Shown: positions 21,744-22,190 of the stretch, in pieces | Layout of the letters: every line of letters begins with the position of its first letter | Numbering within the stretch: position 1 is the first letter of the stretch | DNA from: a virus | Virus genome (UHGV): UHGV-0335080 | DNA length: 34,923 nucleotides | Direction: 5' to 3' (one strand) | Made by a program: the position numbers and the translations under genes | Notes under the pieces: generated by a model | Told to the model about the DNA's origin: nothing | Seen by the model: the letters and a program-made list of their open reading frames with translations, nothing else | Databases searched by the model: none

Positions 21744-21839
21744 ATGATTAGTCAATTACCAAACTGGAAATTTTTGCTGGTCTGGAGCATCCCTTTTTTA
21801 TGGGTAGTATCCCAGTTAATTGTGGCAATTAAGGGGTAG
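21744..21839 (+). CDS. Putative small hydrophobic peptide (31 aa)
   Basis: MISQLPNWKFLLVWSIPFLWVVSQLIVAIKG; C-terminal part of track ORF 21627..21839, whose upstream part contains the terminator hairpin. Confidence 0.25.
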   Translation: MISQLPNWKFLLVWSIPFLWVVSQLIVAIKG

Positions 21840-21841
21840 CT

Positions 21842-21973
21842 ATGTCAGACAAACTCATAACGCCGGCAAAGGTCCTGTGTGTGATTGTCGGTATTTCATT
21901 TTCACTAATGCTGGTTGCTCTTTTTCTGTCCCTCGCCTGGGTGATGTTGTCTTCGTCGGGGCTGCTGGGGTGA
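21842..21973 (+). CDS. Putative small membrane peptide (43 aa)
   Basis: MSDKLITPAKVLCVIVGISFSLMLVALFLSLAWVMLSSSGLLG; start 3 nt after previous stop. Confidence 0.3.
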   Translation: MSDKLITPAKVLCVIVGISFSLMLVALFLSLAWVMLSSSGLLG

Positions 21974-22092
21974 CAGTGACTGATGACATCAGCAGAGCGC
22001 TGGCTTTTGCTATTAAGTGGGTGGCTGTTGGTATTGCTGTGTCTCCGATGCTATATGGGCTGGCAAAACTGGTCATTGCGCTGAAATCGTGA
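21970..22092 (+). CDS. Putative small membrane peptide (40 aa, GTG start)
   Basis: VTVTDDISRALAFAIKWVAVGIAVSPMLYGLAKLVIALKS; GTGA start/stop overlap with previous peptide. Confidence 0.3.
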   Translation: MTVTDDISRALAFAIKWVAVGIAVSPMLYGLAKLVIALKS

Positions 22093-22100
22093 ACTTTAAA

Positions 22101-22190
22101 AAGATGAGTGCTGAACTTATTCGGGCAATGGCATTTGCCATTCGTATTGTGGCCATTGCTGTTCTGGTCTGGGCAATCCGTTGGTGGTGA
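22101..22190 (+). CDS. Putative small membrane peptide (29 aa), paralog of preceding peptide
   Basis: [28 protein letters not shown]; stop TGA followed 1 nt later by the Rz ATG. Confidence 0.3.

Follow-up and report, generated by a model that had tools for sequence, protein, structure and literature searches.

Predicted small membrane-peptide genes at the endolysin–spanin junction of lambdoid prophages

What occupies the junction between the endolysin and spanin genes of a lambdoid prophage when these two genes, which abut in phage lambda, are pushed apart? The question is raised by the virus genome UHGV-0335080, analyzed here as one strand of 34,923 nt (the window; positions are counted from its first letter). 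The window is a lambdoid prophage of Escherichia coli, its 651-bp R–Rz interval being 100% identical to that of E. coli 55989, where the annotated gene order also matches. The endolysin gene R ends at 21549 and the i-spanin gene Rz starts at 22192, leaving a 642-bp gap. The original prediction, made from the letters alone, placed in this gap four open reading frames (ORFs) on the same strand, each encoding one hydrophobic helix, and remarked that lambda has no such block. Both statements hold. R and Rz overlap in lambda and are adjacent in the Qin prophage of E. coli K-12, and the gap of the window contains four ORFs of 31, 43, 40 and 28 amino acids (aa).

21744–21839 (ATG to TAG), plus strand: ORF1, predicted single-transmembrane peptide of 31 aa, or 44 aa if started at TTG 21705; phrog_6632
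21842–21973 (ATG to TGA), plus strand: ORF2, predicted single-transmembrane peptide of 43 aa with the core CVIVGISFSLMLVA; phrog_4906, RefSeq WP_001280935
21970–22092 (GTG to TGA), plus strand: ORF3, predicted single-helix peptide of 40 aa (38 aa from GTG 21976); phrog_3246, phrog_1115 and phrog_4493
22104–22190 (ATG to TGA), plus strand: ORF4, predicted single-transmembrane peptide of 28 aa ending in RWW; phrog_4493 and phrog_3246

Four conserved reading frames between R and Rz

Comparison across related loci indicates that the four ORFs are genuine, conserved genes for small membrane-type peptides. The genes were already present in databases as hypothetical proteins and as PHROG families: RefSeq lists ORF2, ORF3 and ORF4 and, in some genomes, ORF1. 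PHROG hidden Markov models (HMMs) match ORF1 (phrog_6632, E = 1.3e-12), ORF2 (phrog_4906, E = 4.5e-21), ORF3 (phrog_1115, phrog_3246 and phrog_4493, with the three E-values 1.9e-27, 1.7e-24 and 7.3e-17) and ORF4 (phrog_4493, E = 3.8e-6; phrog_3246, E = 9.2e-5), and all of these families are labeled “unknown function.” Pfam, NCBIfam and PADLOC gave no match at E ≤ 1 with the four peptides, and Rfam gave none at E ≤ 1 over positions 20500–23200. What is new is the evidence for selection on these genes, the placing of ORF3 and ORF4 in one family, and the finding that the small-peptide genes form a shuffled module, headed by a terminator, that keeps to the endolysin/spanin junction in unrelated cassettes.

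The comparison of related prophages that the original prediction had put forward as a check came out in favor of the genes. Among the ∼170 related loci fetched, the frames of ORF1 to ORF4 are intact in 82 of 84, 167 of 168, 117 of 118, and 84 of 85 copies, respectively, and one length variant is an in-frame codon insertion. Pooled Nei-Gojobori ratios of nonsynonymous to synonymous substitution (dN/dS) are lowest in the proposed frame for all four ORFs (ORF2 0.32, ORF3 0.33, ORF1 0.44 and ORF4 0.47), the other two frames giving 0.8–2.3. The ORF1 value comes from 4 alleles only and compares with 1.0–1.2 out of frame; its two main alleles differ in the helix by six synonymous and three replacement changes. 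Pairwise ratios for ORF2 are 0.24–0.68, and those for the 29-codon core of ORF3 are as low as 0.04–0.16, with dS reaching 1.5 between E. coli and Salmonella. Set against its most divergent allele, ORF4 has a dN/dS of 0.28 in frame and of 0.72 and 3.0 out of frame; Rz gives 0.42 for the same pair.

It could be objected that these are chance open frames or decaying remnants in a non-coding spacer, given that the ORFs are very short, that ORF4 lacks a clear Shine-Dalgarno sequence, that PGAP assigns inconsistent starts, and that one phage carries damaged copies of ORF3 and ORF4 (see below). However, purifying selection is confined to the proposed frames, full-length ORF2 is found in 276 phage records at 60–80% identity, and the ORFs are kept after moves into other gene orders, cassettes and genera. 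The third positions of the minus-strand 123-aa ORF at 21855–22226, the competing frame, fall on the least variable sites. This explanation is already largely refuted and, in our estimate, hardly tenable any longer. The 123-aa ORF was itself rejected as a gene, both for these wobble positions and for its incompatibility with the gene-order swaps described below.

Each peptide has one hydrophobic segment, with Kyte-Doolittle maxima over 19 residues of 1.9–2.9 (2.19 for ORF1), and the coding strand is strongly T-rich (AT skew −0.24 to −0.36). The TAG-nn-ATG, GTGA and TGAtATG junctions described in the original prediction, the last of them abutting the Rz start, are all present in the sequence. 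ORF1 and ORF2 meet at TAG-ct-ATG, the Shine-Dalgarno sequence of ORF2 (AAGGGG, 5 nt upstream) lying inside the end of ORF1, and the GTG 21970 start of ORF3 overlaps the ORF2 stop as GTGA. ORF4 begins 11 nt past the ORF3 stop with no good Shine-Dalgarno sequence of its own and ends in TGA-t-ATG (22188–22194), Rz starting 1 nt past its stop. The last codons of ORF4, TGG TGG, supply the GGTGG Shine-Dalgarno sequence of Rz. More generally, ORF4-type genes end in CGT TGG TGG TGA, which specifies their conserved RWW C-terminus and doubles as a GGTGG Shine-Dalgarno sequence 4 nt before the next start. The in-frame alternative start of ORF1, TTG 21705, has the Shine-Dalgarno sequence GGGAGG 5 nt upstream, and the transmembrane part of ORF1 is kept in PhiR5_1 behind a new N-terminus. 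PGAP starts ORF3 at CTG 21937, inside ORF2, and in some genomes extends ORF1 to 70 aa across the terminator that precedes the array; both starts are implausible.

A family comprising ORF3 and ORF4, and the distribution of the module

That the third and fourth ORFs look like paralogs had been noticed before, and wider comparison bears this out: they belong to one narrow family. Both match phrog_4493 and phrog_3246, and BLASTP relates them directly (E = 2e-4) and, more strongly, a 48-aa ORF3-type protein to a 37-aa ORF4-type protein (E = 2e-8). The canonical family form is ∼48 aa long and reads MKNGLE[LVI][DK]AP..[DE][IL]..A.AFAI[KR], then the helix, then either ...LAKLVIALKS or ...A[IV]RWW. An AFAI[KR]xVA core is common to the ...ALKS and ...RWW types, and intermediates link the two: protein P0228 joins an ORF4-like head to an ORF3 tail, P0317 has the length of ORF3 and a VRWW end, and P0320 has an MKNGL head and an IRWW tail. 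ORF3 of the window is an N-terminally shortened member of this MKNGLE...AFAIKWVAVGIAVSPMLYGLAKLVIALKS family, and the acidic head is lost or replaced in both window copies. An exhaustive HMM search of 1.84 billion representatives returned just 20 clusters at E ≤ 1e-3. AlphaFold, given the family alignment, models ORF3 as one continuous helix over residues 2–39 (pLDDT 94).

Two further observations concern this helix. A database protein from a 554-bp ENA contig (P0242) has residues 1–36 of the pinholin fused to the C-terminal helix of ORF3, a fusion that may be a recombinant or an assembly artefact. The ORF3 helix (KWVAVGIAVSPMLYGL, 22014–22065) was also considered as a copy of the second transmembrane domain (TMD2) of the pinholin (19636–19690) and rejected, the resemblance (41% over 17 columns; hhalign probability 3.8%) not being significant.

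Judged from its distribution, the block between R and Rz is an optional module that has been shuffled horizontally. It carries between one and four genes for small membrane peptides from three families (ORF1; ORF2; ORF3 together with ORF4), in most cases behind a terminator hairpin. In 80 IMG/VR loci picked via ORF3, positions 21646–22190 are nearly invariant, whereas the R and Rz genes differ at 5–8 sites in every 30 bp, as is expected when a module enters varied backgrounds by recombination. The arrangement of the window, R-ORF1-ORF2-ORF3-ORF4-Rz, recurs in 72 loci. A second type, R-ant-ORF2-Rz, in ∼40 loci, includes Sakai Sp5 (ORF2 homolog ECs_5707) and the O104:H4 phage P13374. In 32 loci the order is swapped to R-ORF3-ORF2-Rz with a full-length ORF3, and in 5 an ant gene precedes the complete set (R-ant-ORF1-ORF2-ORF3-ORF4-Rz). 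Prophages of Salmonella enterica have Phage_holin_2_3, a 161-aa lysozyme, the hairpin, an ORF3 homolog and Rz, and a prophage remnant, also from Salmonella, has nothing left but the family member P0317 and Rz, linked by a TGA-n-ATG junction.

The families extend to cassettes with holin_8 plus holin_3_7 and a GH108 or M15 endolysin, in which ORF3/4 genes, with or without an ORF2 homolog, lie directly 5′ of a 60-aa lipoprotein gene, the phiP27 “separated o-spanin” of Kongari et al. 2018 (PMC6139136). An ORF3/4 gene is present in 37 of 80 lipoprotein loci; in most of the others the lipoprotein gene directly follows the endolysin gene. The TGA-n-ATGAAC junction is the same before Rz (window 22179–22194) and before the phiP27-type lipoprotein (2738–2750 of locus L182 and 2642–2654 of L185), and so looks like a recombination linker. 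Across at least four otherwise unrelated cassette types the small-peptide families sit between the endolysin gene and an outer-membrane-disruption gene, be it Rz/Rz1 or the phiP27-type lipoprotein, with the exception of one distant relative that adjoins tail-fiber genes. Further, unrelated families of small transmembrane peptides occupy the same slot.

The position beside the lipoprotein raises the possibility that the ORF3/ORF4 family is its inner-membrane partner in a two-component mini-spanin, the window copies being leftovers after replacement by Rz/Rz1. RWW-type members do lie directly 5′ of the lipoprotein gene, where an i-spanin gene would be expected, with the same TGA-n-ATGAAC junction as between ORF4 and Rz, and the lipoprotein is listed as a separated o-spanin whose i-spanin partner is dubious (PMC6139136). 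Against this, the family is optional there: 43 of the 80 lipoprotein loci have no ORF3/4 gene, which rules it out as an obligate partner. The soluble head of only ∼17 residues is far too short for the periplasm, where a spanin needs a spanning domain. The ORF3 homologs beside Rz in Salmonella are under strong purifying selection and so are not relics, and the window has an ordinary Rz/Rz1 pair downstream. We regard a mini-spanin as very improbable.

Several details of these loci were noted in passing. The 60-aa lipoprotein gene follows an M15 endolysin gene directly in 36 of 80 IMG/VR loci (L189–L268) with no i-spanin-like gene nearby. In phiP27 (L183) it lies at 2495–2683, and the phiP27 “i-spanin” of Kongari et al. 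(20348–20542) overlaps a 90-aa ORF on the minus strand and is itself doubtful as an ORF. In one S. enterica prophage (L172, 2725–2814) an unannotated 29-aa hydrophobic ORF (MICFVAAFMLACDGRSGWGWFLLVGLIVM) overlaps the lysozyme stop as ATGA.

Word-indexed searches placed the ORF2 and ORF3/4 families in no genera other than Escherichia, Shigella and Salmonella. No true ORF2 homolog turned up when one genome per species was scanned, and the cross-genus dN/dS comparison therefore rested on Salmonella and on the other cassette types. Within this range the genes are common. The 276 phage records with a full-length ORF2 homolog are mostly Shiga toxin (Stx)-converting phages (Stx1 or Stx2), in which the gene is often unannotated; Sakai Sp5 and the phage of the O104:H4 outbreak are among them. 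Of 5426 complete E. coli genomes, 2068 contain at least part of the 651-bp interval and 587 contain all four genes of the block. The damaged copies mentioned above belong to phiSTEC1589-Stx1c (L084, 1937–2105), in which the loss of 1 nt from a T run frameshifts ORF3 and an in-frame deletion removes 13 helix codons from ORF4 (MSNEIAVLVRAIRWW), the TGAtATG junction with Rz being kept. If this phage lyses normally, it is a natural knock-out of ORF3 and ORF4.

The terminator and the timing of expression

The terminator-like hairpin that had been proposed to precede the array is supported by folding and marks the 5′ boundary of the module.

21640–21680, plus strand: predicted intrinsic terminator hairpin (hairpin proper 21640–21672)

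It has a 15-bp stem, a 3-nt loop and a U tract (ΔG −25 kcal/mol; z −4.7 vs. shuffles), and an A tract upstream makes the terminator bidirectional. Of 211 arrays, 154 have a CCCCG...CGGGG-U hairpin 51–211 nt (median 72) 5′ of their first small gene; those without one are mostly preceded by ant. Six sequence variants of the hairpin, found behind unrelated upstream genes, all fold with U tracts (ΔG −20 to −23; z −3.8 to −4.8); each was folded separately and column-wise covariation was not used, since base pairing is offset from one variant to another. In phiSTEC1575 the hairpin still lies directly 5′ of the small gene, although a 93-aa gene is placed between it and the endolysin gene. Cassettes without small genes have no hairpin between endolysin and spanin. 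Taken together, these arrangements indicate that the terminator belongs to the module.

A consensus scan found no sigma-70-like site between the hairpin and ORF1. Together with the strong terminator upstream, this suggests that the peptides are made only from the late transcript antiterminated by Q, and the cassette layout argues for strictly late, Q-dependent expression. The terminator would then insulate both peptides and spanins from leaky upstream transcription. On the minus strand, a promoter-like site runs from 21848 to 21819 (CTGACA, 18 nt, TG-CACAAT).

This minus-strand site bears on whether the array resembles a type I toxin–antitoxin system under antisense RNA control, as it could drive an antisense transcript across ORF1, terminated by the bidirectional hairpin. 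The peptides are small and hydrophobic, and, like Hok, Ldr, Ibs and TisB, they have a similar size, a single hydrophobic helix and tandem paralogous copies. However, the number of promoter-like sites is within chance (3 found vs. 3.8 expected), and the −10 element of the minus-strand site is not conserved in PhiR5_1. The searches given above matched neither an Rfam family nor a Pfam toxin family, the consensus scan detected no plus-strand promoter-like site after the terminator, and, in contrast to type I toxin genes, the ORFs have no separate promoter and lie inside the lysis operon, coupled to Rz. We consider such an array extremely improbable. The anti-small RNAs AgvB and AsxR of enterohemorrhagic E. 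coli (EHEC) were also considered as occupants of the R–Rz gap; that placement is wrong, as both lie 3′ of pR′ and stx, upstream of the holin gene.

Possible roles in lysis, alternatives and flanking features

What might such peptides do? The explanation we favor, to which we give about an even chance, is that the module consists of real genes for single-pass inner-membrane peptides that are expressed late and serve as accessories in tuning the final steps of lysis. The peptides would be produced with the spanins from the Q-antiterminated late transcript, translation passing through the close or overlapping stop/start junctions into Rz, and would enter the inner membrane late in infection. There they would act through helix–helix contacts on the last lysis steps, that is, on the timing or efficiency of membrane and outer-membrane disruption, as non-essential lysis components. 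The GxxxS faces of ORF2 (G17...S21, invariant in the alignment) and ORF3 (G21...S25) suggest helix–helix binding.

No homology of the peptides to holins, spanins, releasin, type I toxins or defense proteins was found. A class II holin requires a signal-arrest-release (SAR) first transmembrane domain and a second domain, and each peptide has a single hydrophobic segment and no match at E ≤ 1 to PF04971 or other holin Pfam families. As i-spanins (PF03245, DUF2514) the peptides are too small (28–48 aa, with a soluble part of at most ∼17 residues) and again lack a Pfam match. None of the four has the lipobox of an o-spanin or other lipoprotein, and they are too short for releasin (DUF2730), with no Pfam match. 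HMM searches for defense genes (PADLOC) and named NCBIfam families were likewise negative at E ≤ 1.

The closest parallels are accessory lysis proteins, the antiholins and holin-like proteins such as lambda S107, phage 21 S71, P1 LydB, LydC and LydD, and P2 LysA. Like the proposed peptides, these are small inner-membrane proteins encoded in the cassette that act late as non-essential modulators. The peptides of the window share no sequence relationship with them (Pfam, PHROG), are much smaller (a single helix; 28–48 aa), and are encoded between endolysin and spanin rather than beside the holin, in company with several unrelated holin types. Co-occurrence of the families with at least three holin types argues indirectly against one dedicated holin partner, such as an antiholin would bind and delay. 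The releasin gp25 of phage Mu (DUF2730; PMC9239132) is similar in being a single-TMD membrane protein, recently recognized as an extra lysis factor, in a cassette with a SAR endolysin. It differs in its length (∼100 aa), its cytoplasmic domain and its DUF2730 assignment, and the window families occur also with the non-SAR GH108 and M15 endolysins. A role specific to pinholins or SAR endolysins is unlikely, as the families accompany Phage_holin_2_3, holin_8 plus holin_3_7, the 161-aa lysozyme, GH108 and M15. The earlier suggestion of a pinholin-specific modulator is thus disfavored. The original interpretation was sound in taking the ORFs for membrane-peptide genes with a paralogous pair and a terminator, but missed the mosaic, order-shuffled and mobile nature of the module and its existing “hypothetical” annotation.

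A constant site 5′ of the outer-membrane-disruption gene, combined with optional presence, fits an accessory that acts generally or at the outer-membrane step; it also fits cargo unrelated to lysis that has settled in a permissive site. Such cargo is the main rival, possible though somewhat unlikely in our judgment, and could serve, for example, superinfection exclusion (keeping DNA from crossing the inner membrane), anti-defense or membrane-active toxicity. Lysis-unrelated ant antirepressor genes occupy the same junction, as do other unrelated small transmembrane families, and an optional, mosaic module that is near-invariant between variable R and Rz genes bears the marks of a recent horizontal spread. 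Among small membrane proteins of prophages, HK97 gp15 is an example of one that functions in exclusion. The lambdoid morons (lambda bor, HK97 gp15; Juhala et al. 2000 as cited in PMC4104026) are similarly optional, mobile and mosaic genes placed between late genes, some of them encoding small membrane proteins. A classical moron is flanked by a promoter of its own on the upstream side and a terminator on the downstream side, and is active in the lysogen. Here, in contrast, the terminator is upstream and not downstream, a crude consensus scan found no promoter, and the genes are coupled to the downstream spanin gene. This arrangement weakly opposes expression in the lysogen, where exclusion genes normally act. 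Also against cargo, the families lie 5′ of Rz/Rz1 or of the lipoprotein gene across four cassette types, in every prophage or phage context examined but that of the tail-fiber neighbor, and the peptides have no PADLOC match.

A different view is that the ORFs are leader or coupling ORFs, for which delivery of ribosomes to the Rz start after the terminator and an open mRNA matter and the peptide sequence does not. Stops lie 1–12 nt from the next start throughout (e.g., TGAtATG at Rz), the WW codons of ORF4-type genes form the Shine-Dalgarno sequence of the next gene, and phiSTEC1589 has lost the ORF4 helix in frame with the stop/start junction retained. This view is difficult to reconcile with the strong amino-acid conservation, namely the low dN/dS of the ORF3 core and the invariant residues G17, F20, S21 and W33 of ORF2. 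Moreover, in lambda, Qin and many M15 cassettes no ORF of this kind is needed for expression of the gene that follows. We consider pure coupling improbable.

Several points weigh against the accessory lysis role that we favor. No expression, localization or phenotype data on the peptides were found in the literature. The damage in phiSTEC1589-Stx1c indicates that at least ORF3 and ORF4 are dispensable for the phage record as deposited, and, given that the slot also accepts ant, the position by itself could be due to a site that tolerates insertions and not to function. The promoter scan was a crude consensus search. The sequences behind the dN/dS values are few and non-independent, with ORF1 (4 alleles) and ORF4 (10 differences in the key pair) thinly sampled. 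No paper on the ORFs was retrieved by full-text literature searches, for which accessions and locus tags were also used, and they are mentioned neither in a survey of Stx-phage lysis cassettes (PMC8136144) nor in a spanin census (PMC6139136).

A bolder version of the accessory role, which we put forward tentatively and hold to be unlikely, is that the terminator-headed arrays represent a new class of plug-in lysis regulators. Late-only peptides would dock by their GxxxS faces onto membrane components of lysis, either holin or pinholin TMD2-like helices or the spanin TMD, and so set the timing or completeness of envelope disruption. The terminator would be upstream because leaky expression of membrane-active peptides harms the lysogen. 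If so, in Stx phages the peptides would also decide when phage and Shiga toxin are released.

Unnamed small ORFs in phage genomes are not surprising in themselves, and the medical connection is one of adjacency through the Stx phages. These genes, however, are widespread and lie inside the lambdoid lysis cassette, among the best-studied of gene cassettes, yet are unnamed and often unannotated. Should the peptides affect lysis, the holin–endolysin–spanin model would gain an extra component, and effects on timing or efficiency would bear on phage and Shiga-toxin release from EHEC. Should they serve exclusion or toxicity instead, the endolysin/spanin junction would be a hotspot for small-membrane-protein cargo. 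In either case, the result amounts to four short genes that are directly testable, with defined starts, alleles and natural knock-outs.

The cassette around the module is otherwise arranged as a class II holin gene, an enlarged holin–endolysin spacer, the lysozyme gene R, the 642-bp gap, and Rz with Rz1 inside it.

19537–19752, plus strand: class II holin, S21-type with dual start MYQMEK, from its translation; RefSeq “class II holin family protein”
21016–21549, plus strand: endolysin R, a lysozyme (PF00959, E = 4e-25; phrog_7)
21550–21639, plus strand: conserved non-coding 3′ flank of R, beginning GGCGGATAACACGAAATCC, with ∼76% identity in Salmonella
22192–22659, plus strand: Rz i-spanin (PF03245, E = 2e-51; phrog_13)
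22412–22597, plus strand: Rz1 o-spanin embedded in Rz, lipobox VVSAC, from its translation

The N-terminus of R is Gly/Ala-rich and weakly hydrophobic (Kyte-Doolittle maximum over 19 residues 1.88), as is typical of SAR endolysins, and the R family of Stx phages has been described as SAR type (PMC8136144). The 3′ flank of R has no Rfam match and is conserved at that level in the Salmonella phages SPN3UB and FSL SP-016 and in one Salmonella prophage, despite their different lysozyme. In a related locus (L179) a PF06085 Rz1 gene is called at the position equivalent to that of the embedded Rz1.

The holin–endolysin interval (19753–21015) is likewise enlarged, in comparison with K-12 Qin, where essQ, ydfR, rrrQ and rzpQ are contiguous. 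It contains a 268-aa ORF (19757–20563) with a YdfR-like start, annotated in E. coli 55989 as a truncated YdfR pseudogene, and a minus-strand 104-aa ORF (20573–20887). Farther upstream, Rfam identifies a full-length match to the small RNA (sRNA) STnc100 (17098–17303, plus strand; 165 bits), 3′ of the Q antiterminator and tRNA genes and 5′ of a DUF6645 gene. The early region (9574–10418, plus strand) has a tandem duplicate of the isrK sRNA and C4 antisense RNA pair at a spacing of ∼656 bp, with isrK at 9574–9650 and 10230–10306 and C4 at 9675–9762 and 10331–10418. An IS1 insertion on the minus strand (10784–11481) adjoins the hokD type I toxin gene (11888–12043), as annotated in the colinear region of E. 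coli 55989.

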